Shown here in pieces: positions 5,569-54,798 of a stretch of 64,000 nt of DNA. The stretch is from a virus (lineage: Duplodnaviria; Heunggongvirae; Uroviricota; Caudoviricetes). Made by a program: the position numbers and the translations under genes. Within the stretch, counting starts at the first letter, position 1; each line of letters begins with the position of its first letter. The notes under the pieces are model-generated. The model worked only from the letters and a program-made list of their open reading frames with translations. It did no database searches and was not told the origin of the DNA. The DNA is taken from the IMG/VR virus record IMGVR_UViG_3300044796_000656; one strand, given 5' to 3'.

Positions 5569-5987
5569 CATGGTGGAAGACATTCTGGACCGCCTGTGTG
5601 GCGATCCTGGTAGGACTGGCGTTCTGGCGCAATCGCAAGAGTTACAAACGCTCGAACGTCTGGTGCCTCATTAAGTCACTGATCGACGTTGCCCTGGTGC
5701 TAGGCATGGCGTTCCGCCTGCCGATGCTGCTGGGTGCTTACGTGATCATGTGGCTGACCAAACCACTCAACCATCGCCCGGTTCTACGCATAGCATACGG
5801 TGCCCTGATCGGAATCGCGATCGCATTCCTGTCCGGCTTTGCCATTGAGTTCGTGGTATTGGCTGGCATCTTCGCAATTGACATGGTGACTGGCGGGGCG
5901 CTGAGACACTGGCGCTCAATCAGCGCCGAGAAACTGGACTGGCGTGCCGAGATCTTCGGCCCCCGGGCCGCGCGAAAGGCAGCATGA
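5565..5987 (+). CDS. hypothetical membrane protein
   Basis: Several hydrophobic helices. Start overlaps the previous stop. Confidence 0.5.
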   Translation: MTWWKTFWTACVAILVGLAFWRNRKSYKRSNVWCLIKSLIDVALVLGMAFRLPMLLGAYVIMWLTKPLNHRPVLRIAYGALIGIAIAFLSGFAIEFVVLAGIFAIDMVTGGALRHWRSISAEKLDWRAEIFGPRAARKAA

Positions 5988-5988
5988 A

Positions 5989-6483
5989 ATGAACATTCAA
6001 GCCCTAATGAACCTTCCTGGTGAAATCGGCCGGATCAAATGGCTCAGGAGCAACTTTCCCAGCATGACCCAAGGCCAGATCCGGCGACACTTGGAGGACA
6101 TCGCGGATGCCCTGGAGCCGATGCGGTTCATGCATCAAGATCAGATCCGCCTGGAGAAGTTCCACGACACTCTGATAACGGTCATAACAGCCGTGCAGGA
6201 TGTCAACAAGAACTACCGCGGCCGGCCAACGGAGATCAAGCGGGAGTATCTGGAAGGCCGCTATCCCAAGCAAATCGCCAACCTGGCCATGATCCTGATC
6301 GGCCAGGAGATCTGTGAGTTTTACGAGCAGCTCTGGAAATCAACCGATGTGACCAAAGTTGCCCAGGTCGAGTTTAATAACGCTCCGACCGTATTACACA
6401 ATCCAACCACAACGGTAGAAAGCGTCACAGCTTTTCAAGGCGTCTTTCTGGAGCCGCAGGCCGGACTGGAGCACCGAGTATGA
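5989..6483 (+). CDS. hypothetical protein
   Basis: ATG (MNIQALMN) two nt after the upstream stop. 165 aa. Confidence 0.55.
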   Translation: MNIQALMNLPGEIGRIKWLRSNFPSMTQGQIRRHLEDIADALEPMRFMHQDQIRLEKFHDTLITVITAVQDVNKNYRGRPTEIKREYLEGRYPKQIANLAMILIGQEICEFYEQLWKSTDVTKVAQVEFNNAPTVLHNPTTTVESVTAFQGVFLEPQAGLEHRV

Positions 6484-6629
6484 AGCAGCGCCTTCAGCTT
6501 TCAAGCATCCTGAGACCGTTGGAGAATTACGTCTTCGGTTTCATCTCAGCGACCGACCTTAAGGCACTTCCGACTATCGAGCGTTACGCTGAGAATGCTC
6601 GGATGCGGCGCAAGATGTTCGGCAGTTAG
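6480..6629 (+). CDS. small hypothetical protein (49 aa)
   Basis: ATGA overlap with the upstream gene. Not in the ORF track because it is under 60 aa. Confidence 0.3.
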   Translation: MKQRLQLSSILRPLENYVFGFISATDLKALPTIERYAENARMRRKMFGS

Positions 6630-6637
6630 GAGATCCT

Positions 6638-6850
6638 GTGGCATACGAGTACGTAAAAACCTTCTACAACGTCAAGCCGATCATTGGTCAACGAGTGACC
6701 CTGAAAGGTACCACGCGCCAGGGAGTTATTAGTCGCAAGCGACACTATGACATGTACGTTCATGTGAAGTTTGACGGCAGTAAAGTCAGTGTTCCCTGTC
6801 ATCCCCTGGAACTCATTTATGAAGAACAGGTGGAAGGAGTGACGCCATGA
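6638..6850 (+). CDS. hypothetical protein
   Basis: GGAG RBS. 70 aa. Confidence 0.45.
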   Translation: MAYEYVKTFYNVKPIIGQRVTLKGTTRQGVISRKRHYDMYVHVKFDGSKVSVPCHPLELIYEEQVEGVTP

Positions 6851-7005
6851 TGACCTGCAAGTGGTGCGATGGTCCATTAAGAGATCAGGCTGGCACTCAG
6901 TGCGACAACTGCTGGGAAGTTATTTGCCGTGTTCGTTATATGCCTGCTGATCTGATCGAGAAGATACTACGCGGCTTGGGTTTCCAAGCGCGGGTAATGA
7001 AGTGA
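6847..7005 (+). CDS. small Cys-rich protein (CxxC..CxxC)
   Basis: ATGA overlap. Translation reads MMTCKWCDG...CDNCW. Confidence 0.3.
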   Translation: MMTCKWCDGPLRDQAGTQCDNCWEVICRVRYMPADLIEKILRGLGFQARVMK

Positions 7006-7012
7006 GGCATCA

Positions 7013-8626
7013 ATGACTTTCTGGAAGCGAATCACGAAGTTTGCCAACTGTCTGGTTGGCACGGCGGCGCTAGTCGCTCGCGACAACTTCGTTGATGTCG
7101 CGATGGCGCTCACTATGCCGCAGGTCAATAACAAGTTGCAGTTGATGTTCCCACCCCGGCCGCAGAGCGCGTTCTTATCACAGCGCCTCGCGGCCCGGAC
7201 GGTGGACGGAGCCGTACTCGAAGGCCAGGAAGGCTGGCAGAAGCTGGCCATCAGGAAGGGCCTGCCTGATTCTAATACAAAGGAGAAGCGCCTTGGGATT
7301 GAAAACGAACCGCACCGAGTCGATGGCTTCTCGGGCAAGATTGAAGAAGGCTACGGCAAGGGCACGAAGCAGTTGCTCACTGATGAAACAGTCGTGGTCA
7401 AGGTCAACGGACAGACACGCTTTGCTCGTCTCAACTACCATCAACACGATGCAGAACGGGCGGGCCTTCATTACGACCTTGTCGTTGAAGGAGTTCGTCC
7501 AGGAACTCCTAAATGGGAACTGCACGTTCCCCGAGGAGATTACAAAGGACGCTACGCATTCATTCAAACTCCCCGAGGCATGCTGATCAACCTCATGCGG
7601 GATCATGGTGAGCAGTTTGCCAAGCCCGCGATGACGTTGAAAGATGAAGCATTCCTGGATTATGTGCAGGCCAATCGAAGCCTGTACGACATCACCGGCA
7701 AAAAAGATGGTGCGTCTGCTTCAGTAACGATCGCTAATTATCGTGCCCACTTCCGTTCCCATCGGGACGGCGGCCAGACTTACTATGACCGGCTGCCTGA
7801 ACTGGAATTCATCAACAATCGAGCGCCGTTCATGCTGTACCGGAAGTTGTTCCCCGGCCCCGGTCAGAATGGCACGAAGTTGGTTGGCGAACTAGTTCAT
7901 CTCGATGGCGCCGCGCGCCAGGGCGGCATTCTGAATTCGTTGCCCGATAAGGCCGTTAAGATCCAGATCGAGCGCGGCCACAGCGAATTCTACGCCTGGG
8001 ACATCGAACGATTCCGAGGGCGCGACCTGTCTCGTATGTCGTTCGCAAAGCGTGAGCGTTACTTGAACGACGCCATTGCTGAGATCGGGCGTTACAACAG
8101 GCACTATCACAGCGTCGAGCATTGCCCGGACAGTATGACTGCCAGGGAGTTCTACGAGTATATCGTTGCCCAGGATCTGCCACACGGTGAGGGCGTGGTC
8201 ATCAAGCCAAAGAACTCGATAGACCGTTCGTGGATCAAGATCAAACGCAGTGACACGATCGATCTGAAAGTCGTCAAGGTCTTGGAAGGCAAGCCTGGAA
8301 CGAAGTACGAAGGTTCTGCCGGTTCTCTGATCGTTGAAGGACCCACGGGCGAACAGGGCAGAGTTGGCAGCTTCCGAGTTGACGACCAGCAGAGGCAGTG
8401 GATCTTCGATAACCAAGATCTCCTGGAAGGTCAGATTGCTGAGATTGAGGCCTTTGAGATGACCGAGCGCGGTGTACCGCGCGCCGGGCGTTTCGTTAGA
8501 TGGCATCCCTCGAAGTCCGAGGGCGCTCTGCTGATGTACGCCGAGACCTTGAGCGGCGGCGAAAGCCGGGAAGCCATGATGAATACTAAGTACGCGCTAA
8601 TTCAAGCAGTTAGGAGAGCCGCGTAA
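7013..8626 (+). CDS. ATP-dependent ligase (nucleotidyltransferase motifs I, IV, V) with an N-terminal domain resembling the LigD 3'-phosphoesterase module
   Basis: Motifs GKKDG (KxDG), EGVVIK and WIKIK. The N-terminal part (LHYDLVVEG...WELHVPRG) resembles the LigD phosphoesterase HYDxRLE / WAVPKGPS motifs. Confidence 0.7.
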   Translation: MTFWKRITKFANCLVGTAALVARDNFVDVAMALTMPQVNNKLQLMFPPRPQSAFLSQRLAARTVDGAVLEGQEGWQKLAIRKGLPDSNTKEKRLGIENEPHRVDGFSGKIEEGYGKGTKQLLTDETVVVKVNGQTRFARLNYHQHDAERAGLHYDLVVEGVRPGTPKWELHVPRGDYKGRYAFIQTPRGMLINLMRDHGEQFAKPAMTLKDEAFLDYVQANRSLYDITGKKDGASASVTIANYRAHFRSHRDGGQTYYDRLPELEFINNRAPFMLYRKLFPGPGQNGTKLVGELVHLDGAARQGGILNSLPDKAVKIQIERGHSEFYAWDIERFRGRDLSRMSFAKRERYLNDAIAEIGRYNRHYHSVEHCPDSMTAREFYEYIVAQDLPHGEGVVIKPKNSIDRSWIKIKRSDTIDLKVVKVLEGKPGTKYEGSAGSLIVEGPTGEQGRVGSFRVDDQQRQWIFDNQDLLEGQIAEIEAFEMTERGVPRAGRFVRWHPSKSEGALLMYAETLSGGESREAMMNTKYALIQAVRRAA

Positions 8627-8884: not shown

Positions 8885-10039
8885 TTGGAAACTGAATCCT
8901 GTGTTTTACATTGCGATAAGGGAAGCTCAGATAAGATCTACCAGGCCCAGCTAGTCCCGGAGGGTGCAGGCTGGGTCGTGAAGTATCAATTCGGCCGCCG
9001 GACGCCCGGAACAACCTGCGGCATCAGTGGCATGCAGGTCGGGGAGAAGACGGATCATCCCAGCGTTTACGGATATGCCAAGAAAGTCTACGACGATCTG
9101 ATCGACAAGCAGATCCGCGTCAAGAAGTACCACGTACTCAGCTCGACCAGCGGCGAATCGGCCGATGCAATAGCAGTTCCCAACAAGGTCGCCAGGGAAG
9201 ATTCAGGAATCTGTCCGATGTTGCTGACAGCCATCGACCAGCCGGAACTTCAGAAGCTCGCTTGTAATCCGTCCTGGTGTTTCCAGGAGAAGAAAGACGG
9301 CGAACGCCGACTGCTCAGGAACGACATAACTGGTGTCGTTGCCATCAATCGCAACGGCGAGATCACGACGCTGCTACCGAACATCGAGAAGGTTGCGGAG
9401 GACATTCTCGCCAGCTTCATCATCGACGGCGAAGAAGTAGGCGATCAGGAATTCGCCTTCGATCTTCTGGAACTCGACGGAGTCGATTGGCGGAAGAAGC
9501 CAATGAAGGAACGTTGGCTGAAACTTGCCGGCTTGAATATTCCCCAGGGCAATGCCGGGATCGTTGTCGTCGAGACGGCGTTCACCACTGTCGCCAAGGA
9601 GGAGATGATCATCCGCGCCGAGGTCGAGAAGTGGGAAGGCATCGTCGCCAAGATGGTCAGCGCCCCCTATGAAGAAGGCAGATCCAAGAAAGCCCAGAAG
9701 TTCAAGTTTAAAGCCAGCGGGACCTTCCTGGTGGACAAACAGAACGAAGACAAGAACGGCGTGAAGAAGCGCAGCGTGGCTTTGCTGGTCCACAGCGGCG
9801 AAGGTTACAACTGGCAGCCGGTCGGTAACGTGACGATCCCGGCCAACTTCGAGATCCCGCCTGACGGCTCGTTCGTTGAGATCGAGTATCTGTACGTCAA
9901 GGGCCGCGGTGGGTCTTTGTACCAGCCGGTCTACAAAGGCGTACGCGCGGACATCGGCGGTCCCTTTGGAACCAAGGCCGAGTCGGTCGATACGCTGAAG
10001 TATCGTCAAGGCTCTACCGAAGACGACGAGGAAGCATGA
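8885..10039 (+). CDS. WGR-domain ATP-dependent DNA ligase
   Basis: TTG start. N-terminal W-G-R signature (AGWVVKYQFGRRTPG). Ligase motifs EKKDGER (I), IIDGEEV (III), EGIVAK (IV) and KFKFK (V). Confidence 0.8.
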   Translation: METESCVLHCDKGSSDKIYQAQLVPEGAGWVVKYQFGRRTPGTTCGISGMQVGEKTDHPSVYGYAKKVYDDLIDKQIRVKKYHVLSSTSGESADAIAVPNKVAREDSGICPMLLTAIDQPELQKLACNPSWCFQEKKDGERRLLRNDITGVVAINRNGEITTLLPNIEKVAEDILASFIIDGEEVGDQEFAFDLLELDGVDWRKKPMKERWLKLAGLNIPQGNAGIVVVETAFTTVAKEEMIIRAEVEKWEGIVAKMVSAPYEEGRSKKAQKFKFKASGTFLVDKQNEDKNGVKKRSVALLVHSGEGYNWQPVGNVTIPANFEIPPDGSFVEIEYLYVKGRGGSLYQPVYKGVRADIGGPFGTKAESVDTLKYRQGSTEDDEEA

Positions 10040-19313: not shown

Positions 19314-20555
19314 ATGAGCCAATTTGACGTCATCGACGCCGAGGACGGCAAGATCATCAAGATCTGGGCACGCGGCGTCCAGGTCGAAGACAAGGCAATC
19401 GAGCAGCTCAAGAAGACCGCGTCTTTGCCTTTTATCTATCGCTGGGTTGCTGCCATGCCGGATTCTCACTGGGGTATGGGCGCGACCATTGGTTCGGTTG
19501 TCGCAACCAAGGGTGCGATTATCCCCGCAGCAGTCGGCGTGGACATCGGATGTGGCATGATGGCCGTGAAGTTGAATCTGACACTCGGCGACCTGGGGAA
19601 CATCGCTCTTGGTACGTTGAGGGCTGCGATCGAAAAAGCAGTTCCAACCGGCCGGACGAACAATGGCGATCGCAAGTCAGATCGTGGTGGCTGGCAAAAC
19701 GTACCAGATGCTGTGGATCACATTTGGTGCCGAGACTTATCAACAGACTTTGCAGATATCCTCGAAGCGAATCCAGGTGCTAAGCCGATGAACGATGTAA
19801 ATCACCTGGCTACACTGGGAACCGGTAATCATTTCATCGAGTTGGTCTACGATGAAACCGGTCAACTTTGGGTCATGTTGCATTCTGGATCGCGCGGCCC
19901 GGGGAACAAGTTCGGTGTCTACTTTGTGAAGTTGGCGAAGGAGATATGCAAACGCTGGTTCATTCAGCTCCCTGATCCTGATCTTGCGTACATCCCGGAG
20001 GGAACTCCTGAGTACGCCCGCTACATGAAGGCGTTGCACTGGTCGATGAAGTTCGCCTGGCACAATCGGATACTTATGATGGAACGCATCATTGCTGGTC
20101 TTCAGCAGGTGATTCCAAGTCTCGATACCAGGGATGAATCGGTCCACTGCCATCACAACTACGCCGCGATGGAGAAGCATTACGGCCAGGAAGTCATGGT
20201 TACGCGCAAAGGGGCCGTGCGCGCCCAGCGCGACGAGCTGGGGATCATCCCAGGGTCGATGGGTACTCGCAGCTACATCGTGCGCGGGAAGGGCTGCCAG
20301 GACTCATTCCAGTCGTGTTCTCACGGCGCCGGCCGCGCCATGGGGCGCAAGGAAGCCCTGAAGCGGTTTACCCTCGAAGACCATATCAAGGCTACCGAGG
20401 GAATCGAGTGCGCGAAGGACGTTTCCGTTTTGGATGAGACGCCCCTTGCGTATAAAGATATAGACAGCGTGATGGCGGCGCAGACAGACCTCGTCGAGAT
20501 CGTGCATACGTTCAAACAGCTTATCTGCGTCAAAGGCGCAGGGGATGGAGAATAG
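19314..20555 (+). CDS. rtcB: RtcB-family RNA 3'-phosphate/5'-OH ligase
   Basis: Motifs MPDSHWGMG, VGVDIGCGM, GTGNHFIEL, HSGSRGPG and CSHGAGR. Confidence 0.85.
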   Translation: MSQFDVIDAEDGKIIKIWARGVQVEDKAIEQLKKTASLPFIYRWVAAMPDSHWGMGATIGSVVATKGAIIPAAVGVDIGCGMMAVKLNLTLGDLGNIALGTLRAAIEKAVPTGRTNNGDRKSDRGGWQNVPDAVDHIWCRDLSTDFADILEANPGAKPMNDVNHLATLGTGNHFIELVYDETGQLWVMLHSGSRGPGNKFGVYFVKLAKEICKRWFIQLPDPDLAYIPEGTPEYARYMKALHWSMKFAWHNRILMMERIIAGLQQVIPSLDTRDESVHCHHNYAAMEKHYGQEVMVTRKGAVRAQRDELGIIPGSMGTRSYIVRGKGCQDSFQSCSHGAGRAMGRKEALKRFTLEDHIKATEGIECAKDVSVLDETPLAYKDIDSVMAAQTDLVEIVHTFKQLICVKGAGDGE

Positions 20556-21004: not shown

Positions 21005-21076
21005 CATAACGCTCGTGAAAAGACCAGCATTAGTTGGCATTTTCGGACAGGGGTTCGACCCCCCTCATCTCCACCA
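21005..21076 (+). ncRNA. ssrA: tmRNA acceptor piece (T-arm, 3' acceptor strand, discriminator A and CCA) of a circularly permuted ssrA
   Basis: GGAC-AGGGG-TTCGACC-CCCCT-CATCTCC-A-CCA, closely parallel to the E. coli tmRNA 3' end GGACGCGGGUUCAACUCCCGCCAGCUCCACCA. The 5' boundary is uncertain. Confidence 0.55.
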
Positions 21077-21100
21077 TGATTCTCCCGTTGTTCACTATAC

Positions 21101-21385
21101 GGGGATGTCACGGCTTCGACGGAAATGGACAATAGATGTGGACGAGCCGGATGGCGTGGCCACCGTGGCGCAAGCTGACCCCAGTCGGTAACGACGGGGT
21201 ACAACGGACACGCAGACGATCAAGTGCCAAAAACACTGTCGCCGTCAAGGTCAATGTCACGGTTTTCCCGGCTCGCCGGGCGGCCCTGGCAATGGAACTT
21301 GCCGCCTAGTCTTCGGACTAGGAGGGGCTAAGGACTGAAGCCTTTTAATCCAAGGGGGACCGATGGCGGTCCCCCACAGTTCACT
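21101..21385 (+). ncRNA. ssrA: tmRNA coding piece (5' acceptor strand GGGGATG, tag reading frame ending ...ALAMELAA-TAG at 21307..21309, stop codon inside a hairpin)
   Basis: GGGGATG-TCACGG-CTTCGACGG resembles the tmRNA 5' end GGGGCUGAUUCUGGAUUCGACGGG. GGGGATG pairs perfectly with CATCTCC 24 nt upstream and includes a G3-U70 wobble. The tag frame ends LAA. The 3' end is a strong 9-bp hairpin at 21353..21379. Confidence 0.55.
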
Positions 21386-27329: not shown

Positions 27330-27532
27330 TGTGCATGGCTTGCGTTGAAGCGGGAGCCTGGGTCGTTGCGGCTGGTGCCACTGTCTTGCCGTTGGTCATT
27401 CCGGCGATCCGAAAGAAATGCGAGAAGTTCATAAGCTGCGGTGGTGAAGTCAGGTCCAACACTACAGTCTGCAAAACTGTCATCGCGGGTTCAAATCCCG
27501 CCCGCAGCTCCACCGATCCCGCACTCGAATGA
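27329..27532 (+). CDS. small membrane protein
   Basis: One TM helix. 67 aa. Confidence 0.35.
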   Translation: MCMACVEAGAWVVAAGATVLPLVIPAIRKKCEKFISCGGEVRSNTTVCKTVIAGSNPARSSTDPALE

Positions 27533-28093: not shown

Positions 28094-30247
28094 ATGCCGA
28101 AGATCATACTTGCCGCAGACCAGTTTTGCGGAGCTGGTGGGACATCGTTGGGATTTACCCGGGCATGCTACAAGCGCGGGTTAAGCCCGGACCTGCTCGC
28201 CATCAATCACTGGCCGCTGGCAATCGAGACTCATTCGGAGAACCTGGCGTATGCACGTCACATGTGCATGTCGCTCGATCAGGTGAATCCGCGTGAGGCT
28301 GTTCCAGGCGGCCGTTTACATCTGTTGATGTCCTCGCCCGAATGTACGCATCACAGCGTCGCGCGTGGCGGAAAGCCTATTAACGACCAGTCGCGCGCTA
28401 CCGCGTGGCACGTCATTAAGTGGGCGCAGGAACTCTGGATCGCCAACATTCTTGTGGAGAACGTCCCTGAGTTCCAGTCGTGGGGTCCGCTGAAGTCCGA
28501 TCTTACTCCGGACAAACGATACAAGGGGCAGTTGTTCATGTCCTGGATCGAGAACCTCAAGGCTCTCAACTACAACGTTGAGTGGCGTGAACTATGCGCC
28601 GCCGATTATGGAGATGCGACGACGCGTGTCCGGTTGTTTGTGCAGGCCCGAAAGAAGCACCTCGGGCCGGTCACCTGGCCGGAACCAACTCATGCTCGGC
28701 CCATAGAAGTAGGCGCTGATCTGTTCTCGGCCGCAAAGAAACCGTGGCGATCCGCACGGGAGATCATCGACTGGGACATCACCGGAAGAAGTATCTTCAA
28801 CCGCAAGAAGCCCCTGTCACCCAACACGATCAAACGGATTGCAGCCGGACTGAAGAAGTTCGGCGGCGCCGCGGCCGAACCGTTCCTGGTCATGCTTTAT
28901 GGAACTGGAATGGTCCGCGACGTCGATCGGCCGCTTCCGACTGTGACAGCCGACGGCCAGCATATTGCCCTCTGTGAACCGTTTGTCGTCAATCTGAAGA
29001 AGGGAAGCATGCCTCGTAGCGTGGACAAACCCTGCGCGACCCAGACTACGAAGCAGCACCAGTACCTCTGTGAGCCGTTTGTTCTGGGCCAGCAGTCGTG
29101 CAGTGCTCCCCGCTCGACGGATCTTCCGATCCCGACAGTGGCGACCGCGGGTGCCATCCGGGTATGCGAGCCGTTTCTTATTCCGCAGTTTAGTGAACAC
29201 GCTCCTCGATCCATCGATCGCCCTATCGGGACGGTCACAACCACCAGCCGGGGAGTTGGCTTAGTGGACTTCGTGATCGGTATAGACCACCAGGGCGGAG
29301 ATGGCTCTCCGCGCTCTGTGGAAGAACCGATCACCACGATGACCACCAAGGCCCGTCATTGTGTTGTTGAAGCCGCGGCGGAGCCCGTAAGCCAGTTCCT
29401 CGTCCATTCCGGAGGGCCATCGGTTGCCGAGCGTTCGGTAGACCAACCCTTGAACACCATTCTTACACGCGAGCACATGGCCGTTGTCGAAGCCGTGGCG
29501 CTCAAGGTCGATGCTCCGGCTTTCCTGGTCAATGTCGGAGGCCCGGAAGGCTCCGGCCGGCAGCCGAAGTCGGTGGACGTGCCCTTGAATACCGTCCTGA
29601 CAGAGAACCATACGGCGGTCGTCGAACCATTCATTATGGCGGTTAATCATGGAAACGATGGACCAACGGCAGATGCCCGGCGCTGCAAGTCAATGAACGA
29701 TCCGTTGCCGACGTTGACCACGGAACAATCGTTTGCGATCGTCGATCCCTTCTTGATGGCTGTCAACCACAGCGAAACCGGGAATGGGGGTGCCCGCTGC
29801 TACACCGTCGATGATCCTCTGGGAACGCTTACGACCAAGGGGTCGTTTGCGGTGATCGATGCCGATGCTCAGAAGGTCGATCAGACTTTCCTGGTCAAGT
29901 ATTACGGGTCTGGGATTGCGACCTCGGTCGATGAACCCCTGGACACCGTGACTACGAAAGACCGCTTTGGCCTGGTGACCATCAACGGCGAGCAGTATGC
30001 GCTCGACATCCGCTTGCGCATGTTGGAACCAAAGGAGTTGGCGGCGGCGCACTCGATGGAGGGTCACATCTTCAAAGGGCCACGTTCGATGCAGGTAAAG
30101 CAGATCGGCAACGGCGTTCCATCAGGTCTCAGCGAAGCCCTGACAGGTAACGTCCTCGATCAGTACGCCGATGTCATCGACGAAACCGATGTCCCGATAG
30201 ATCTTTTGATAGCCGGGGCCGGTACGACTATACCTGCAACTGTGTAA
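28094..30247 (+). CDS. DNA (cytosine-5) methyltransferase with a tandem-repeat target-recognition region
   Basis: Motif I FCGAGG, motif IV SSPEC, motif VI ENV. Motif IX LRMLEPKELAAAHSM and motif X QIGNGVP. Between motif VI and motif IX there are about 10 tandem repeats of 35-40 aa. Confidence 0.85.
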   Translation: MPKIILAADQFCGAGGTSLGFTRACYKRGLSPDLLAINHWPLAIETHSENLAYARHMCMSLDQVNPREAVPGGRLHLLMSSPECTHHSVARGGKPINDQSRATAWHVIKWAQELWIANILVENVPEFQSWGPLKSDLTPDKRYKGQLFMSWIENLKALNYNVEWRELCAADYGDATTRVRLFVQARKKHLGPVTWPEPTHARPIEVGADLFSAAKKPWRSAREIIDWDITGRSIFNRKKPLSPNTIKRIAAGLKKFGGAAAEPFLVMLYGTGMVRDVDRPLPTVTADGQHIALCEPFVVNLKKGSMPRSVDKPCATQTTKQHQYLCEPFVLGQQSCSAPRSTDLPIPTVATAGAIRVCEPFLIPQFSEHAPRSIDRPIGTVTTTSRGVGLVDFVIGIDHQGGDGSPRSVEEPITTMTTKARHCVVEAAAEPVSQFLVHSGGPSVAERSVDQPLNTILTREHMAVVEAVALKVDAPAFLVNVGGPEGSGRQPKSVDVPLNTVLTENHTAVVEPFIMAVNHGNDGPTADARRCKSMNDPLPTLTTEQSFAIVDPFLMAVNHSETGNGGARCYTVDDPLGTLTTKGSFAVIDADAQKVDQTFLVKYYGSGIATSVDEPLDTVTTKDRFGLVTINGEQYALDIRLRMLEPKELAAAHSMEGHIFKGPRSMQVKQIGNGVPSGLSEALTGNVLDQYADVIDETDVPIDLLIAGAGTTIPATV
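28913..29990 (+). repeat. about 10 tandem degenerate coding repeats (R-S-x-D-x-P-x-x-T-x-T-T ... V-E-P-F) inside the methyltransferase
   Basis: Repeated peptide units visible in the translation: RSVDKP..TQTT, RSTDLPIPTVAT, RSIDRPIGTVTT, RSVEEPITTMTT, RSVDQPLNTILT, KSVDVPLNTVLT, MNDPLPTLTT, VDDPLGTLTT, VDEPLDTVTT. Confidence 0.75.
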
Positions 30248-42672: not shown

Positions 42673-44010
42673 TTGAGAGTAAAAGTAGAAGTGGGTACTC
42701 TGCGCGACGCCGTCGAGCAGGCCCGTGCCACGATCGACAACACCATCCCGACCTTCGCCGGCCTCTATCTTGAGGCTTCCCATGCCACGAATGGCAATGG
42801 CCGAATTCGGGTCTATTCCCAGAAACCCTGCGCTCGTATGCTGGTCGCCATCCCGGCTGAAGTCGAAGTCGAGGGCCGTGTAGTGATCCGGTCGGACCAG
42901 TTATTGACTGGTCTCAAGGGTCACAGTTCCAGCGACTTGGTTGGTCTTACGTTGGTTCAGAGTCAAAAACAGGGAGACAAGAAAGAAGACGGTGGCCGAC
43001 TGTCCGGGGTTGTGAATAATCGTTCCCGGTTTAAGTGCGCCGTTCTTACCGGAGCGTCGCTGTTTGCCGACCAGATCGCCAAACTCCCGCTCAACGGCAC
43101 CAACGGTTCGAAGTTCAACGCCACCATCCTCGCGGATGTCATCAAGAAAGTGGCATGGTGTGCAAACTCCAGCGAGATCAACAAGAGCGTCATCGACTCT
43201 TTGGGATTCAAGCGTACGGAGCATGGGTTCCGGGTGTACGCAACCGACGGTTTTATCGCCGCGCGCGTTTCCGTGAACACGGATCTTTACCCGGAAGAGA
43301 TGACCATCCCCAGACTTCCGCTGGAATTGTTGCAGAAGATCCTCGGCAAGCATTCTGCTGCCGAGATCTCGGTCATTAAGGGAAATGTTGCCGGCGGGGA
43401 ATACCGGGAACTCTACTTTAAGATGGACGAGTTATTTTATGGCGCGTCCACATCCAGCCAGGTCATGCCCAACATCGAGACGGTGTTCCTGGACGAAAAC
43501 CGGATGCCTACGAGAAAGGTGATCGTATCCCGGAACTTGCTTCAGGACATGCTCGGGCGTCTCGTCGGATTTGCCGACAAAGCGGCGCCGGTCATTCACT
43601 TTTCGTTGCTGGATGACAACCTGAAGCTATCGACCGCCAGTGCGGATGGGGACTGCGAAGAAGAGTTTCCGATCGCCTACACTGGCGACAGCAAGTACAA
43701 AACCGGGGAGACGGAAGTCTCGATCGGTTATGCCTTCATTCACAAGTTCCTTTCGGCGATTTCAAACGACCTGATCACGCTGGGATTCCGTGATGAGGTA
43801 AGTCCGATGACCGTGTCCGACGAAGGCAACGACGACATCAACACCCGGTACATCATCATGTGCATCCGTCCGAAGGCCGAAGTGCCTCCGATGCCGGACG
43901 CACCGGTGGTTGTAGCGGTAGCGGTGGCGGTTGTACCCCCGGTCGCAGAGGAAAAAGCCAATGAAGAACAAGACGATGAAATTCCTTTTCCGACAGATGT
44001 TGGGGCCTGA
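42673..44010 (+). CDS. putative DNA polymerase sliding clamp (beta/DnaN-like) with Pro-rich C-terminal extension ending ..DDEIPFPTDVGA
   Basis: TTG start. The N-terminal pattern (VKVEVGTLRDAVEQARATIDNTIPTFAGLYLEAS..GRIRVYSQ) resembles the DnaN domain 1 layout. This is an inference; I see no single diagnostic motif. Confidence 0.45.
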   Translation: MRVKVEVGTLRDAVEQARATIDNTIPTFAGLYLEASHATNGNGRIRVYSQKPCARMLVAIPAEVEVEGRVVIRSDQLLTGLKGHSSSDLVGLTLVQSQKQGDKKEDGGRLSGVVNNRSRFKCAVLTGASLFADQIAKLPLNGTNGSKFNATILADVIKKVAWCANSSEINKSVIDSLGFKRTEHGFRVYATDGFIAARVSVNTDLYPEEMTIPRLPLELLQKILGKHSAAEISVIKGNVAGGEYRELYFKMDELFYGASTSSQVMPNIETVFLDENRMPTRKVIVSRNLLQDMLGRLVGFADKAAPVIHFSLLDDNLKLSTASADGDCEEEFPIAYTGDSKYKTGETEVSIGYAFIHKFLSAISNDLITLGFRDEVSPMTVSDEGNDDINTRYIIMCIRPKAEVPPMPDAPVVVAVAVAVVPPVAEEKANEEQDDEIPFPTDVGA

Positions 44011-49314: not shown

Positions 49315-50025
49315 ATGCATTTAGGAAAACTGATCACCGTGGAAGGTACCGATGGTTCCGGTAAAGGTTCTTTACTGAACCGCCTGGAGAAAGCTCTTAG
49401 GGATATGGGCCATGATGTGTTGCGTTCCAGGGAGCCAGGGGCTTCAAACGTCGGTGAAGTTCTACGTGATCTGATGTTCAAGAATCCGGGTTCGGCTCCT
49501 CGGCCTGATGGCGCGATTCCCCTTTCGGGTGCTCAAGTAGATTGCCTGATGTTATGTGACCACATCGGTCATGTGGCTCAGGTAATCCTGCCGGCCCTGA
49601 AACAGGGTAAGTGGATCTTGAGTGACAGGTATGCCGACTCACAGTTCGCTTACTGTGCCGCGCGGGAACACTCTGACCACATCAACGAAGCGTTCTGGAA
49701 GCATTATGGGCCTATGCCGGACATTACGATTCTCCTGGTCGGCGACGTCAATGAGATGTTGCGCCGTGCTAAGACTCGTGATGATTCCCCGGACGCCAAG
49801 GAACCTGGAAAACAGGCGGCAAAGAGCTGGAGCAAAGTCGAGATGCAGACCCGTATCCAGAACGCCTATCTGCATAACCTGAGCAACCAACCCAGGACCG
49901 TCATCGTGGAGGTGACTGGCAAGACGAAAGAACAGGTGTTCGAGGATGCTTTCGAGCGCATGTTCATTAAGCTCGCCCAGCGCCCGAAGGTAACCCAATC
50001 AACCATCTTTGAAGCAGTTCAATAG
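49315..50025 (+). CDS. tmk: thymidylate kinase
   Basis: P-loop VEGTDGSGKGS. LID-like region. Confidence 0.8.
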   Translation: MHLGKLITVEGTDGSGKGSLLNRLEKALRDMGHDVLRSREPGASNVGEVLRDLMFKNPGSAPRPDGAIPLSGAQVDCLMLCDHIGHVAQVILPALKQGKWILSDRYADSQFAYCAAREHSDHINEAFWKHYGPMPDITILLVGDVNEMLRRAKTRDDSPDAKEPGKQAAKSWSKVEMQTRIQNAYLHNLSNQPRTVIVEVTGKTKEQVFEDAFERMFIKLAQRPKVTQSTIFEAVQ

Positions 50026-50027
50026 GA

Positions 50028-51467
50028 GTGCCCGTGGCCAAGAAAACAGGCGCTCCAAAAGCGCCCAGGATCAAGAAGCCTCGGAAGTCTAAGTCTTATG
50101 CTCCCCGGCGCGCACAGGTCTCCGGGGTTCACAGTGTTGCGATCGAGGAAGAAGTCCCAGTCCCTTATTGGGTTGTGGGAAGTTCCGACTGGATCGACAA
50201 CTGGTTTGATCTCGATGCGCTTCCCGAGGGGAGGGTACTGCGAGTTTCTTCGCCCGGGGATCTTGGCCAGATCAAGGAGGAACTTTCCAAAGAGCCCATA
50301 CATACGCTGGATACCGAAACCGGCCAGGATGTAAACACGCGTGCGGACGCCAGTGAGTTCGACAAGGTATGGGGAATGGAACCCTGGATGCCTACGTCTC
50401 AGGTGCTAATGGCGCAGTATGGCACCGCGCGTCGGCCGCTGATTCTCGAACCCCGGTTACTGGGAGAGTTGCGTTGCTTCCTGGAATCGGACCAGTTCTT
50501 GAAAATCCTTCAAAACTCAGTGTTCGATTTCAAGTTTTTACTGAAAAAGCACGCTGTCCATCTGGTGCGCATTTACGACACCATGCTTGCCGAACAGGTC
50601 TTGACCGCCGGCCGACCGGGTCTGAAGGTCACATTGCTGGATCTGGCAAGACGTTACGCGCCATACCGGATCATCCGAAAGGATGTCCGTGATGAGTTTG
50701 TGACGTTCAAGATCGGTATCCAGAAGTTCTCCAAAGAGATGACTGATTACTCAGGGCGAGACATAGTCTTGCCGCCCGATATTATGGCCGGCCAGGTCCC
50801 TGAGCTTCGCAAATGGAAGTTGGAAGACGTTGCCAAGGCGGAGTTCGAATGTGTCCCCTGCACGGCGGAGATGGAGCTTTTCGGGGTCCACCTGGACGGT
50901 GACATTCTCGAACTGGCGCTTACTGCTTACCGGGAAGATGACATTGAGTTGCGCGAGAAGATCATGGCTGCCGTGGGTTCGTCCTTAGCAGATGCCGGTC
51001 ACTCTATGGGCCTGTTCGGCCAGGAGGGATTCTCGTTCGATCTGAAGTCAATCCCCGAACGCCTGCGGATCTTCCGGGATCTGTTGGGTTTCGACATGGA
51101 AGACGCTACGCGCGAGTCCATGTTGAATATCCCGCACGAAGCCGCCCAGGACATCGCCAAGTGGACAGCAGTAGATAAAGTCCTAACCACGTATGGCGAC
51201 GGTCTGATCAAGAAGATCTCACCGTACGATGGCAGATTCCATCCGAGGTTTAGTCAGCTCGGACTGGGCGACCAGGAAGCCCGGAGCGGTAAGAAGACCA
51301 ACATCGCCACCGGACGTTACTCCTCGAACTTCCAGCAATTACCGAAACCCATCGAACGCTTTGCCAAGGTCGCTGACCTGGGCGAGCAGGGCATGATCAA
51401 TGCCACGTTCGAAGCGCAGATCGCGCAGATACGTCAGCAGAGGGGATTGCTACATGCCGCAGCCTAG
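50028..51467 (+). CDS. DNA polymerase I family, N-terminal fragment (3'-5' exonuclease and thumb), ending just before motif A
   Basis: Exo I LDTETG. TGRYSSNFQQLPKP aligns with the TGRLSS..PNLQNIP element. Ends with a stop codon. Confidence 0.75.
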   Translation: MPVAKKTGAPKAPRIKKPRKSKSYAPRRAQVSGVHSVAIEEEVPVPYWVVGSSDWIDNWFDLDALPEGRVLRVSSPGDLGQIKEELSKEPIHTLDTETGQDVNTRADASEFDKVWGMEPWMPTSQVLMAQYGTARRPLILEPRLLGELRCFLESDQFLKILQNSVFDFKFLLKKHAVHLVRIYDTMLAEQVLTAGRPGLKVTLLDLARRYAPYRIIRKDVRDEFVTFKIGIQKFSKEMTDYSGRDIVLPPDIMAGQVPELRKWKLEDVAKAEFECVPCTAEMELFGVHLDGDILELALTAYREDDIELREKIMAAVGSSLADAGHSMGLFGQEGFSFDLKSIPERLRIFRDLLGFDMEDATRESMLNIPHEAAQDIAKWTAVDKVLTTYGDGLIKKISPYDGRFHPRFSQLGLGDQEARSGKKTNIATGRYSSNFQQLPKPIERFAKVADLGEQGMINATFEAQIAQIRQQRGLLHAAA

Positions 51468-51840
51468 CCAGGAAGTAAAGGTCGGCCAGATCTGGAAGGA
51501 CAACGACCGACGGGAGAAACACCGTCTGGTCCGTGTGGAGTCAATCGACGGTCGGTTTGCGGTTTGCGTTTGTACTACGGGAAACCAGCCAAACCGCAGG
51601 TATCGAATCCAACTTTCCAGGTTCAGACCGATTTCCACCGGATACGTTTTTTGGGGGGATGCTGACGGAGTGGAACTAAAGATAGATAAACGCTACGTCT
51701 TCGGGATCTACATTCCCGAAGGTGGTGATCCGAACGCCATTCCGGTCCTGGAACGTGTGCAAATCAGGGCTCCCGTGATTCATAGCCAAAGTGAATCCGA
51801 TGAAGGTTCTGTAGCAGGAGACAACCATGTCGCAAGCTAA
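51456..51840 (+). CDS. hypothetical protein (insertion ORF 1)
   Basis: ATG overlapping the end of the upstream fragment. 128 aa. Confidence 0.45.
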
Positions 51841-52258
51841 CCAGCAGGTATTCAGGTCGGTTGTAGTTCGTTCCTCAGAAATTGAGGACGAGACGCTCAG
51901 GGAACAGATCGACGGTCGGATGATGTCCTACGAGCAGGCGCTGATGGAGGAATCCTCGGCGCAGTTAGACGTCGAACGCGCGACGGCGAAGTTGCTGCGT
52001 GCCCGGGCCTCGCGTATGGAGTCCCGCGCGGCGGTGCAGGAGTCGTTCGGCAAGGGGGATTCCAGAGTCGCGATGGAACCAAATCCATGGGAGCCCTTCA
52101 GAGATAACAGGGGAGGTGTCTGCATCGAGAACTTCCTGTCGCAGCGAGACCAGCGGAACATGATGCGCGCTCAGAAAGCCAACATGAACCGCCAGGTCGA
52201 GCAGATGACCGAGGGAAACCACGGGGACATGTTCGAGCACGGAAATAACGAATCATGA
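51827..52258 (+). CDS. hypothetical protein (insertion ORF 2)
   Basis: 143 aa. Confidence 0.45.
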   Translation: MSQANQQVFRSVVVRSSEIEDETLREQIDGRMMSYEQALMEESSAQLDVERATAKLLRARASRMESRAAVQESFGKGDSRVAMEPNPWEPFRDNRGGVCIENFLSQRDQRNMMRAQKANMNRQVEQMTEGNHGDMFEHGNNES

Positions 52259-52671
52259 ACATGCAGGCATCGTTATTCGACCCGGCACCGGAGCCTGAAG
52301 TACCGGTGCCTTCTTTTTCCCTGAGTCCTAAGGAAGTCAAGGCCGTCAAGATTGCCAAGCCTCCAGCGCCTGAGATGACCGTGATCCCTGCGCGACCGTT
52401 TCATCCATCTCAGAAACTCGACCTGCCTGCTTGGTTGCGCAAGCACAAGTACGACCTGATTCTTTGTGAACTGGTGGTGCGTGCCAAGACTATCGAGGCT
52501 AACCACCTGCATACCGAAGGGTCTGAGGCTGAGTTGAAGTATCTCCTTGAAGCCTACGGAGGAGACGAGACGCTACTCCGCGCCGATGTCGTGGATACCG
52601 CGCAGTATATCCAGCGGCACCACATGCAGGCAGCAGCTCACAGAACAACCGAAGAAACGAGTCTGACCTAA
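52255..52671 (+). CDS. hypothetical protein with N-terminal QASLF peptide (insertion ORF 3)
   Basis: MNMQASLFDPAPEPEVPVP. Confidence 0.5.
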   Translation: MNMQASLFDPAPEPEVPVPSFSLSPKEVKAVKIAKPPAPEMTVIPARPFHPSQKLDLPAWLRKHKYDLILCELVVRAKTIEANHLHTEGSEAELKYLLEAYGGDETLLRADVVDTAQYIQRHHMQAAAHRTTEETSLT

Positions 52672-53685
52672 ATGGGCACGCAAGCAATGCTGTTCGACTC
52701 TCTGGAGGTGGCGCCGCCGCCGGCTATTGTGACGGCTGGAGCTGGGATCACAGTCAGTACGAAGCCGGTATTCATTGCGACCGTTGATGGCAAATCGTAT
52801 TACCTCGACCTTGATCCCAAGTCCCCGACGTTTAACCAGACGATCTGGAAGGTGCCGGATATCCGTGATGCAGTCACAGCCGAACCCGGCTACCAGATTG
52901 TCGCCAGCGATTATTCGCAGATCGAAATTCGCATCATGGCCTTTCTGTCGAAAGATCCGTGGCTCATTGCCGCGATCAACTCGAAGAAGGACATGCACTG
53001 CTACATGGCAACGGATGTCTTCGGTGAGGAGATGGGCTTCACGTATGAAGACATCGCCGCGGCCACGAAGGGTGAAGATCGAAATTCGCATCCGCGCCAT
53101 AAGGAACTGAACGACGTTCGCAACAATATCAAGCGGACCTCGTTTGGAATCCCCTACGGCGTATCGCCCATTGGACTTTCGTACCTGATCAACAAAGACG
53201 AGAAGTTCGCCGCCATGTTGATGGCCCGCTTCTTTGGGAAAGCCAAAGAGTTAAAGCGTTGGCTTGAAAACCAGGGCGACTTCGCGATCCGGTATGGCTA
53301 CACCTCGACCCTGTTGGGCCGCAAGCGGTTCTATCCAATCCCCTCGCCGGAAGATCCGCGCGCCGAGGAAATGCTTTCTCAGATCCGCCGTTGGAGTGGT
53401 AACCATCCTGTCCAGGGTTCGAACGCCGACATGTTAAAGCTGGCGCTTAACAAGTTGTATCTGGACGTACGTGATGGCGTGTACACCAATCCGGCTAAGT
53501 GGGGAACCCGCCTGTTGTTCGTGGTTCACGATGAAATCGTTGCGACCTGTGAGACCGAACATGCTCCCAAACTGAAAGTAGTTGTGGAGAATGCGATGGA
53601 CTGGGCATACGAACGGCTGATCGGATCGAACAACGTTTATCACAAATCAAAGGCCGTCATCGCCGATGTATGGGCGAAGGCATAA
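52672..53685 (+). CDS. DNA polymerase I family, C-terminal catalytic fragment (motifs A, B, C) with N-terminal QAMLF peptide
   Basis: Motif A DYSQIEIRIMAF. Motif B RNNIKRTSFGIPYG. Motif C VVHDEIV. Has its own ATG and begins MGTQAMLFDSLEVAPPP. Confidence 0.8.
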   Translation: MGTQAMLFDSLEVAPPPAIVTAGAGITVSTKPVFIATVDGKSYYLDLDPKSPTFNQTIWKVPDIRDAVTAEPGYQIVASDYSQIEIRIMAFLSKDPWLIAAINSKKDMHCYMATDVFGEEMGFTYEDIAAATKGEDRNSHPRHKELNDVRNNIKRTSFGIPYGVSPIGLSYLINKDEKFAAMLMARFFGKAKELKRWLENQGDFAIRYGYTSTLLGRKRFYPIPSPEDPRAEEMLSQIRRWSGNHPVQGSNADMLKLALNKLYLDVRDGVYTNPAKWGTRLLFVVHDEIVATCETEHAPKLKVVVENAMDWAYERLIGSNNVYHKSKAVIADVWAKA

Positions 53686-53695
53686 GGGAACGCCT

Positions 53696-53974
53696 ATGAG
53701 TCCCTGGGTTGAGTCTCGTGAAGGGTTTAAGCATCGCCTGATTATGAATCTGCGCGCCCAGGGATTATCCCATCGGGAGGCAGATGCGGCTATCGACATT
53801 GTGGTCAACACGATCAAAGACGCGTTGCAGCGTCACGAAGCCGTAACCATTGAAGGCTTTGGGACATTCAAAGTAGTTCCTACTCCTGCGCCACAAAAAG
53901 CGTGGAAGTTTGGACGTGTAGTAACCCTGCATGAACATGATCGCTTCACCGTGGTCTTCGAGGAGGCTACATGA
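53696..53974 (+). CDS. HU/IHF-like DNA-binding protein
   Basis: GFGTFKVV...R.G signature of HU-family arms. Confidence 0.65.
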   Translation: MSPWVESREGFKHRLIMNLRAQGLSHREADAAIDIVVNTIKDALQRHEAVTIEGFGTFKVVPTPAPQKAWKFGRVVTLHEHDRFTVVFEEAT

Positions 53975-54798
53975 GCGGACGCGGAGGTATGTGCCGTAAT
54001 CCATTCGGAAAACGGTTCAACAACAACAAAGGGGAGTTCGAGAGTAATCCTCGCTTCGACAAGATCGACGACATCCTCAAGATAGTCATGAACGGCAATA
54101 CAGATCCGGAGTACGCGATCTTTGCCGCAGCTCTGCTGAAAGACATTCATAACTACCTTTATTGGAGTCTGGGCGACAACAAGTGTACTGACGTGAAGTG
54201 GCAGGACGCCTACGACTATCTGTTCGTGATCCAGGGCGACAAGCCGGAGACTTGGGGAAAAGCCCGTATTGAACGTTCGGTAGAACATACCGAGGACAAT
54301 CGGCGAATCACTCATAAAGTCCGGTTGACCGACGAGGACATGAAGCGTCGTACGTTTGATGCGCATTACGAACTGCTGCGGCTTCAGGAAGTTCTACCGA
54401 TAAGCAGTTTCCGGCGACTCCTAAAGGAACGACGGGCTGAGATCCTTCGCCAGAACCGTGAACAGGTAGAAGACTACCTGCGCTCCGAGCGCGTCAGGGA
54501 ATTGGAGAACTACCCGGATGGTTCTCAGATGCGTATTTCGTTCTACAACCACGATCTTATTAAGACTCTGACGAGTCCTGAAAGCATGCAGCAGGTTGCA
54601 GAGTTGGTGCTTGGTCCGGTACCGGCGCCGCCTCGGCCATGCCGCACCCCGCGGCGCCGCTTGACGCAACCAAGAAAGAAACCGTTGTGCCAGGGGACTG
54701 AGGAGGGATTGTTTGAAAAGTACCCGATTGCTGATCGTAACGCTGATCACGATAGCCAGCGTGTTGCTGGACATCTTGTATCTGTACAAACTTCGTAA
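53971..54798 (+). CDS. hypothetical protein
   Basis: 275 aa. Confidence 0.5.
   Translation: MSGRGGMCRNPFGKRFNNNKGEFESNPRFDKIDDILKIVMNGNTDPEYAIFAAALLKDIHNYLYWSLGDNKCTDVKWQDAYDYLFVIQGDKPETWGKARIERSVEHTEDNRRITHKVRLTDEDMKRRTFDAHYELLRLQEVLPISSFRRLLKERRAEILRQNREQVEDYLRSERVRELENYPDGSQMRISFYNHDLIKTLTSPESMQQVAELVLGPVPAPPRPCRTPRRRLTQPRKKPLCQGTEEGLFEKYPIADRNADHDSQRVAGHLVSVQTS

Follow-up and report, generated by a model that had tools for sequence, protein, structure and literature searches.

The 64,000 nucleotides (nt) of the IMG/VR virus record IMGVR_UViG_3300044796_000656 (Caudoviricetes), referred to here as the window, carry a DNA polymerase I that is encoded by two separately translated genes, with three small genes between them. 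All five open reading frames (ORFs) lie on the + strand. The first, PolA-N (50028-51467; 479 amino acids (aa), with a GTG start), provides the 3'-5' proofreading exonuclease, the thumb and a 38-aa C-terminal tail. The last, PolA-C (52672-53685; 337 aa), begins at its own ATG and provides the palm and fingers, together with polymerase motifs A, B and C. The gap of 1204 nt from the PolA-N stop to the PolA-C start is occupied by g1 (51454-51840; 128 aa), g2 (51827-52258; 143 aa), which is the middle gap gene, and g3 (52255-52671; 138 aa). The mechanical call for the first of these is an ORF of 146 aa (51400-51840), but its most likely start is the ATG at 51454, which has a GAGGGGA Shine-Dalgarno sequence 6 nt upstream; homology to the corresponding gene of the closest full-gap relative (locus L089) starts from residue 18 of the mechanical ORF. 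In textbooks, a family A polymerase is a single-chain 'right hand', and one polypeptide with thumb, palm and fingers is a hallmark of the family. Neither the window nor 12 related loci conform to it: the thumb with its TGR motif is on one ORF and the palm and fingers are on another.

The profile matches of the first and last ORFs tile a single exonuclease-polymerase, so that no portion of the enzyme is lost. PolA-N matches the Pfam family DNA_pol_A_exo1 (PF01612, E = 1.7e-9) and profile positions 68-133 of DNA_pol_A (PF00476), and PolA-C matches positions 140-362 of the latter (E = 9e-45); PHROG_17 is covered at 657-988 by PolA-N and at 995-1210 by PolA-C, and NCBIfam NF011539 (628 positions) at 107-387 and 383-627, respectively. 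This bears out the initial annotation, which had recognized two independently translated parts of one polymerase and had placed motifs A, B and C on the downstream ORF. The exonuclease residues D95/E97 (ExoI, DxE), N163/D167 (ExoII, Nx3D) and Y241/D245 (ExoIII, Yx3D) are invariant in 11 N-halves of the clade. Motif A, with the catalytic Asp (D80-Y-S-Q-I-E85; 52909-52926, + strand), has D80, Y81, S82, Q83 and E85 invariant in 35 C-halves, and the same 35-row alignment (A1) has invariant columns for motif B on the O-helix (R150..K154..F158-G159..Y162-G163; 53119-53160, + strand) and for motif C with the second catalytic Asp (H286-D287-E288; 53527-53535, + strand). The discriminator position of motif B (Phe/Tyr/Leu) is Phe. 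The AlphaFold2 (AF2) model of PolA-C has a mean predicted local distance difference test score (pLDDT) of 90.7, and Foldseek matches it to the palm and fingers of the Bst, Taq and Klenow large fragments (E ~1e-17; template modelling score 0.65 for the query, 0.39 for the targets). Comparison of PolA-C with a 97%-identical relative yields a ratio of non-synonymous to synonymous substitution rates (dN/dS) of 0.026, at an unsaturated dS of 0.54. Invariant catalytic residues and this low ratio argue that both halves are functional and constrained.

Functional halves need not be cooperating halves. PolA-N might serve as a stand-alone exonuclease, with PolA-C inactive or newly functioning; stand-alone DnaQ-like exonucleases exist, and LUZ24-like and S-SBP1-like phages have separate exo and pol genes. 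Nevertheless, PolA-N keeps the whole thumb and the TGR..QQxP element, which have no role without a palm, and PolA-C keeps its invariant motifs yet has no thumb. The two genes are always adjacent and co-oriented, they evolve at similar rates, and no second replicative polymerase was detected among the scanned larger genes of the window. A conserved thumb without a palm, invariably next to a conserved palm without a thumb, makes independent function very unlikely.

The genes are tightly packed. PolA-N and g1 overlap by 14 nt, as do g1 and g2 (the g2 start has AGGAG upstream), g2 and g3 share an ATGA overlap, and the g3 stop abuts the PolA-C start (TAA-ATG). With its genes overlapping or abutting throughout, the gap is essentially 100% coding, and the five genes are predicted to be translationally coupled. 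Sites resembling promoters and terminators occur at background level (4 against 4.0 expected, and 8 against 7.0 expected). Ribosomal bypassing of the T4 gene 60 type was considered and rejected for this 1.2-kb, fully coding gap.

The junction between thumb and palm

The last canonical PolA element of the N-half is the TGRYSSNFQQLPKP motif (residues 428-441; 51309-51350, + strand), which is the counterpart of TGRLSS..NLQNIP in Pol I and aligns with GRFSS..NLQQIPR of the apicoplast PolA. T428, G429, R430, S432, S433, Q436, Q437, P439 and P441 are invariant in the alignment of 11 PolA-N sequences, and every N-half of the clade terminates 30-45 residues past T-G-R-[YWF]-S-S-x-x-Q-Q-x-P-[KR]-P. The PolA-N stop of the window (TAG, 51465-51467) does not come right after QQLP, as had initially been noted, but 38 codons past QQLPKP, and the intervening N-tail (residues 442-479; 51351-51464, + strand) is conserved as protein. 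It is a clade-specific C-terminal extension at the break, in which column-by-column comparison of the 11 sequences brings out a conserved hydrophobic periodicity (positions 445, 448, 457, 460, F461 and 465) and E453. Unsplit PolAs lack it; the distance from TGR to the motif A Asp in them is only 28-34 residues. An HMMER alignment prompted the thought that the I-R-x-A-F strand has a relic duplicate in the N-tail (x-x-x-F-x-P-V); this could not be established.

On the other side of the gap, PolA-C opens with a head of 63 residues (52672-52860, + strand) that precedes the canonical I-R-D-A-V strand. About 25 disordered residues are followed by an ordered, clade-conserved element, L-G-x3-G-K-E-Y-Y ... 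W-x-V-P-D, which AF2 folds as a beta-hairpin (33-38/41-45) and a strand (57-59), with pLDDT ~90 for residues 31-60. Y43, P62, D63 and R65 do not vary in the 11-row paired alignment; in alignment A1 the same holds for W59, P62 and R65. Klenow homology begins at residue 64 (I-R-D-A-V = I-R-Q-A-F). The best relative of the N-half profile with a solved structure is the apicoplast PolA, in which only ~4 residues lie between QQIPR and IREIF. That spacing and the Klenow start point together place the break within a very short thumb-palm loop just upstream of motif A, between the TGR..QQxP motif that ends the thumb and the I-R-x-A strand that leads to motif A; in unsplit PolAs just a few residues separate the two.

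These extensions bear on whether the polymerase is made whole again by splicing. The gap might be a self-splicing group I or group II intron with ORFs, the mature mRNA then specifying one continuous polymerase. An intron-like insertion was among the initial proposals for this locus; phage DNA polymerase genes commonly contain group I introns that carry endonuclease ORFs, and the possibility has been raised for the split polymerase of phage MEP401 (PMC10580990), to which we return below. Against it, no Rfam intron is matched at E <= 10 over 49500-54500, or at the gathering threshold in the whole window; the overlapping coding genes leave a ribozyme core no room; and the gap varies from one to six ORFs among relatives while its junctions stay fixed. 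Moreover, the N-tail and C-head, which would otherwise be intronic or removed, are conserved as protein and the head is structurally ordered. An intron is thus highly improbable. Direct and inverted repeats flanking the gap, such as would mark a transposon or an excisable element, amount to short chance matches.

Splicing at the level of protein fares no better. Phage replication enzymes are known in which an N-part, a free-standing ORF and a C-part follow one another, the fractured genes with their split inteins and free-standing endonucleases (Dassa et al. 2009, PMC2677866), and here too split-intein fragments at the ends of the two halves might bring about protein trans-splicing around a free-standing gene. 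Inteins are not far away: L048 and L083, two unsplit and distant PolAs, have an intein-like C-terminal splice junction, ...NELCVHN|S, before (S/C)SNPN(V/L)QN of the TGR-QNIP motif, so that inteins target the motif adjoining the break point. The window differs from fractured genes in lacking a split-intein signature and in having gap ORFs that are not recognizable endonucleases. Neither half matches a Hint or intein Pfam family at E <= 0.1. In the junction columns of the alignment, the position after the last extein-like residue is variable (I/V/E/D/K/T/R), with no conserved Cys, Ser or Thr, and there is no conserved His-Asn plus nucleophile before the C-extein. At 38 aa and about 60 aa, the tail and head are also shorter than a minimal intein. 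We regard trans-splicing as just as improbable as an intron, and the earlier statement that this is not an intein holds.

The split module in related phages

A protein search for relatives of the C-half was made in a 5.8-billion-protein collection. Every one of the best 120, whose identity ranges between 99% and 36%, is a stand-alone protein 250-360 aa long, and many are encoded on contigs of 100-226 kb. Thirteen distinct loci were assembled for comparison (the window and L001, L004, L005, L006, L007, L008/L014, L010-L012, L013, L015, L017, L087/L088 and L089), and in all 13 a PolA-N of 439-479 aa is followed by one to six small ORFs and then by PolA-C, with an identical break point. The surroundings are also shared by the clade: genes for a class II ribonucleotide reductase, dUTPase and Tmk lie upstream, and genes for an HU-like protein, an SNF2-like helicase and a DUF1257 protein lie downstream. 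In the window the HU/IHF-like gene (53666-53974, + strand; phrog_379, with PF00216 in relatives) shares its first 20 nt with the end of PolA-C; many members of the clade, though not all, have it in synteny.

The PolAs of the same data set that are at <=31% identity have contiguous genes. Against cultured phages, megablast with 49500-54500 gives zero matches, tblastn of the C-half finds only PolAs at <=31% identity, and the match with the best coverage is a Gordonia phage polymerase that is a single 797-aa gene. (A pattern scan of IMG/VR with a single protein returned nothing; the scan based on an alignment succeeded.) On this comparative evidence, the split is old and clade-defining among large uncultivated phages, and of the options originally put forward for the locus, the stably split polymerase is the one that comparison with related phages strongly favours.

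What lies in the gap is far less constant. Additional cargo ORFs, varying by locus, are found on either side of g2. Of the fetched loci, L089 alone has a homolog of g1 (42% identity over residues 18-91), and the G+C content of g1 at third codon positions (GC3) is 0.55, against 0.67 for the polymerase halves. Homologs of g3 are confined to the close relatives L090 and L089. With L090 (16-378), amino acid identity of g3 is 66% by tblastn and 69% in a codon alignment, and with L089 it is 43% (tblastn); between the window and L090, in comparison, PolA-C is 96-97%, the SNF2 helicase 95% and the HU-like protein 84% identical. The g3 gene is still coding in this comparison (dN/dS about 0.13), and this very fast-evolving small gene is a candidate for a host-interaction or anti-defence function. 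No family match above threshold was obtained for g1 or g3 in Pfam, PHROG, NCBIfam or PADLOC. Both appear to be fast-turnover cargo behaving as variable insertions. The description of the gap as a 1.2-kb insertion of three unrelated ORFs thus survives for g1 and g3; it fails for g2, which is present in 13/13 loci and is under purifying selection.

The lower GC3 of g1 and the restriction of g1 and g3 to close relatives are also what one would expect if the polymerase gene had been recently disrupted, as a pseudogene, through an error of sequencing or assembly (sequencing error had been entertained at the outset), or by three foreign ORFs inserted in this strain only. Independent assemblies, however, share this break, as do relatives down to 36% identity, and both halves are under strong purifying selection with all their catalytic residues intact. 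C-halves 96-99% identical to that of the window are separate proteins of 337-339 aa in independent JGI, ENA and Logan assemblies, and the N-halves of relatives were called independently as proteins of 439-474 aa on dozens of contigs, which excludes a sequencing or assembly artefact. We consider a recent disruption or error to be refuted by these comparisons.

The conserved middle gene

The one constant occupant of the gap is g2. Homologs lie between the halves in 13/13 loci (tblastn; phmmer E = 4e-31 to 5e-5), and in L005, L007, L010-L012 and L087 g2 is the sole gap gene, which makes N-g2-C the minimal architecture. Finding its relatives required a family alignment: a word-indexed search with the single sequence gave 2 matches, and the profile search gave 53 clusters. 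An HMMER scan of 1.84 billion representatives yielded 76 members at E <= 0.001, essentially all of them stand-alone proteins of 54-203 aa, and fusions to other domains were never seen. When a g2 match is taken as the starting point, the locus search returns to a split PolA; g2 was never found outside the gap position in the sampled loci. It is under purifying selection (dN/dS 0.11-0.27, with dS saturated), and in two sub-clades its amino acid identity (73% and 70%) equals that of the polymerase halves (66-76%). These observations point to g2 as a core component of the split module, tied to the split.

The AF2 model of g2 (pLDDT 85.8) consists of a helix (22-77), a beta-hairpin (89-101) and a second helix (106-129), and the protein ends in an acidic, disordered tail in which [LM][FY]E is conserved. 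No polymerase-related or nuclease domain is recognizable by Pfam and fold searches. Nor are any of the three gap genes endonucleases by these criteria: Pfam, PHROG, NCBIfam, PADLOC and fold searches return no nuclease family or fold for g1, g2 or g3, in keeping with the initial remark that the inserted ORFs lack recognizable homing-endonuclease motifs.

A role for g2 as a polymerase subunit can be entertained tentatively, with the odds somewhat against it. In its strongest form, which we hold to be rather unlikely, g2 would be the obligatory third subunit of a heterotrimeric family A polymerase, either clamping the two chains together or tethering the enzyme to the beta clamp through its [LM][FY]E tail. 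The tail resembles clamp-binding consensus motifs (QL[SD]LF, QADMF) or SSB-like acidic tails, a likeness that serves as a lead only. The window does encode a beta sliding clamp homolog (42673-44010, + strand; PF02768; phrog_947, 'DNA polymerase processivity factor'), and this may be relevant to the g2 tail. Its 445 aa exceed the length of bacterial DnaN (~370 aa).

Mobile DNA and a proposed origin of the split

Relatives of the window provide snapshots of mobile DNA at the same gene. In L017 (IMGVR_UViG_3300033977_000108) the C-half is split again, within motif B (F-G-V-P|), into 5856-6284 and 6986-7468, and the intervening gene (6233-6835) encodes a 200-aa HNH endonuclease (PF01844 at 24.0 bits, with a cut-off of 21.4; phrog_25862, E = 1e-31). 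With this second split, the L017 polymerase is in at least three pieces plus g2. In L013 (IMGVR_UViG_3300031524_001640) a 197-aa endonuclease (6397-6990; phrog_3322, E = 7e-23; the Endo VII-like phrog_1035, E = 1e-5) sits between a truncated duplicate of the C-head (6214-6378) and the functional C-half (6980-7969). The duplicate is a 54-aa ORF ending ...WRVHQFSYTM* that matches a C-half by phmmer with E = 3e-4; the arrangement has the look of recent homing, with the target duplicated at W-R-V|P-D-I-R. Another PolA lineage, at about 27% identity, is split in the same loop in L082 (IMGVR_UViG_3300032272_000390; 110-2567): the N-part ends ...TGRLSSSNPNLQNLTGGDD*, a 132-aa Cys-rich/helical ORF unrelated to g2 follows, and the C-part starts M-S-V-I-K-K-C-F. 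This is an independent break at the same site. Taken together with the intein-like junctions of L048 and L083 and with the MEP401 polymerase, these cases make the region just upstream of motif A a recurrent break point. Of the initial suggestion that a mobile element had inserted at a conserved site, the L013 and L017 endonucleases support the historical part; as a description of the present state of the window, it does not apply.

We propose that a replicative family A polymerase underwent an ancient fission into the co-linear module PolA-N/g2/PolA-C, the split probably having been created by mobile DNA that inserted at a highly conserved site. The five genes of the window would be translated from one mRNA and the two halves would assemble non-covalently into one active exonuclease-polymerase, with the N-tail and C-head probably stabilizing their interface, by analogy with what experiments showed for the mobE-split NrdA of phage Aeh1. 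The two junctions that flank g2 would later have served as landing sites, for cargo in the window (g1 and g3) and for homing endonucleases in its relatives. We put the probability at about 0.85 that the split is stable and clade-wide and that the halves assemble non-covalently, with no splicing.

Several points weigh against this proposal or parts of it. The minimal N-g2-C architecture is free of recognizable endonuclease or other mobile-element genes, so that an origin by insertion is drawn from analogy and from the relatives. The physical association of the halves is something that we infer. As for g2, its fold yields generic coiled-coil structural matches only, its link to the polymerase consists of strict co-localization and constraint, and phage replication modules generally keep their gene order, for which reason linkage by itself is no proof of shared function.

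These last points lead to a serious alternative for g2, one that touches the rest of the proposal nowhere and is compatible with it. Having no polymerase role at all, g2 might be the oldest passenger of the locus, a degenerate remnant of the gene-breaking element or an unrelated early gene, held in place by gene order. The absence of a recognizable polymerase-related or nuclease domain suits a passenger; Tmk upstream and the HU-like gene downstream are likewise syntenic in the clade; and independent splits near or at the site carry unrelated small ORFs (gp14 of MEP401 and the middle ORF of L082). A mere passenger would hardly be expected to be the only gap gene that is kept while all other gap ORFs turn over, to remain undisplaced as cargo enters on both sides, to match the conservation of the polymerase halves in two sub-clades, and never to be found fused or, in the sampled loci, elsewhere. 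We judge the chances of the passenger explanation to be only slightly below even. In the module as we propose it, g2 would be either a domesticated founder insert or a genuine accessory subunit, as a bridge or a processivity adaptor.

To our knowledge, the natural fissions of PolA described so far are either separations of exonuclease and polymerase domains or isolated cases that are poorly characterized. If g2 were indeed a third subunit, the enzyme would be the first natively multi-subunit PolA, with a cleft built from separate chains and a dedicated accessory protein. As it stands, g2 is a candidate for a new polymerase accessory protein, the break marks a permissive site usable for engineered split polymerases, and the module offers a natural system in which to see how an essential enzyme survives invasion by mobile DNA, with the scar made permanent. 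There is a practical side as well: gene callers name the halves 'DNA polymerase I' or 'hypothetical protein', and viral phylogenies based on PolA would be supplied with fragments only.

The nearest precedent is the PolA of the OM43 phages MEP401 and MEP402 and related Zobellviridae, which is split within the polymerase domain (PMC10580990; OP830906, gp13-gp14-gp15), a feature conserved in most of the related metagenomic genomes (PMC10580990). As in the window, the break lies between the TGR..QN motif and motif A, and an exonuclease with the polymerase's N-terminal portion is followed by a small ORF and then by a C-part with motifs A-C. The differences are several. The MEP401 break is about 15 residues further downstream, so that the N-part retains the I-x-x-x-F strand and motif A comes at the very start of the C-part (M-ILNADAKALEW). 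Long conserved tail and head extensions are lacking, gp14 (77 aa) is no g2 homolog (2.4 bits), and the polymerase belongs to another PolA lineage (without a significant BLASTP match over most of its length) in a 43-kb podophage.

The exonuclease/polymerase boundary is the site of fission in two other groups. LUZ24-like Bruynoghevirus phages have a 'DNA polymerase part I/II', with about 8 small ORFs, including an endonuclease, between the parts, and for S-SBP1-like T7-like cyanophages AF2 predicts that the exo and pol products come together again in the canonical fold (Czernecki et al. 2023, PMC10201439). In these phages, as in the window, PolA is in two genes, but the cut falls between domains. 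The break in the window instead cuts the polymerase domain between thumb and palm, so that the active-site cleft must form from two chains. PolA fission at the exonuclease/polymerase boundary (LUZ24-like, S-SBP1-like) and inside the polymerase domain (MEP401-type) is thus already known. What is new is a deep and widespread clade of large phages with a thumb|palm break, its conserved junction extensions, the orphan protein that is always encoded in the gap, and the direct snapshots of endonucleases invading the same gene in relatives.

For the mechanism, the best model comes from a different enzyme. In Aeromonas phage Aeh1, mobE splits NrdA into NrdA-a and NrdA-b, and tails that derive from the insertion are essential for assembly and activity (Friedrich 2007; Crona 2011, PMC3045599). 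There, as in the window, a replication-related essential enzyme has been cut at a conserved active-site region by mobile DNA, without splicing, and by this analogy the tail and head of the window may be understood. In contrast to the window, the Aeh1 insert can be recognized as a homing endonuclease, and only one phage has the split; in the window it defines a deep clade and the conserved gap gene is no recognizable nuclease. T4-related Aeromonas phages offer a further parallel: as summarized in PMC2988022 from Petrov et al. 2010, their family B polymerase is made as two polypeptides, gp43A and gp43B, that must reassemble, and an untranslated spacer or a seg-like endonuclease separates the genes. 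Here too a replicative polymerase is in two genes parted by inserted DNA; the family and the break site differ from those of the window, and there is no conserved intervening protein.

A few other features of the window deserve mention. Two adjacent ATP-dependent DNA/RNA ligase-like genes (7013-8626 and 8885-10039, + strand; phrog_114) lie far upstream of the polymerase. Since the match of the second is limited to the C-terminal part of the adenylation domain, this could be another duplicated or fragmented gene. A gene for tRNA-Cys (GCA) (27435-27512, + strand), in the replication/modification region, adjoins the gene for a 717-aa C5 cytosine methyltransferase (28094-30247). Just downstream of an RtcB RNA ligase gene (19314-20555) is a permuted transfer-messenger RNA (tmRNA) gene (21011-21309, + strand; Rfam RF04321, E = 1e-12, 75.6 bits where the gathering score is 47), which ARAGORN also calls, with the tag peptide AKNTVAVKVNVTVFPARRAALAMELAA. 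A phage-encoded permuted tmRNA may give a hint to the host group.

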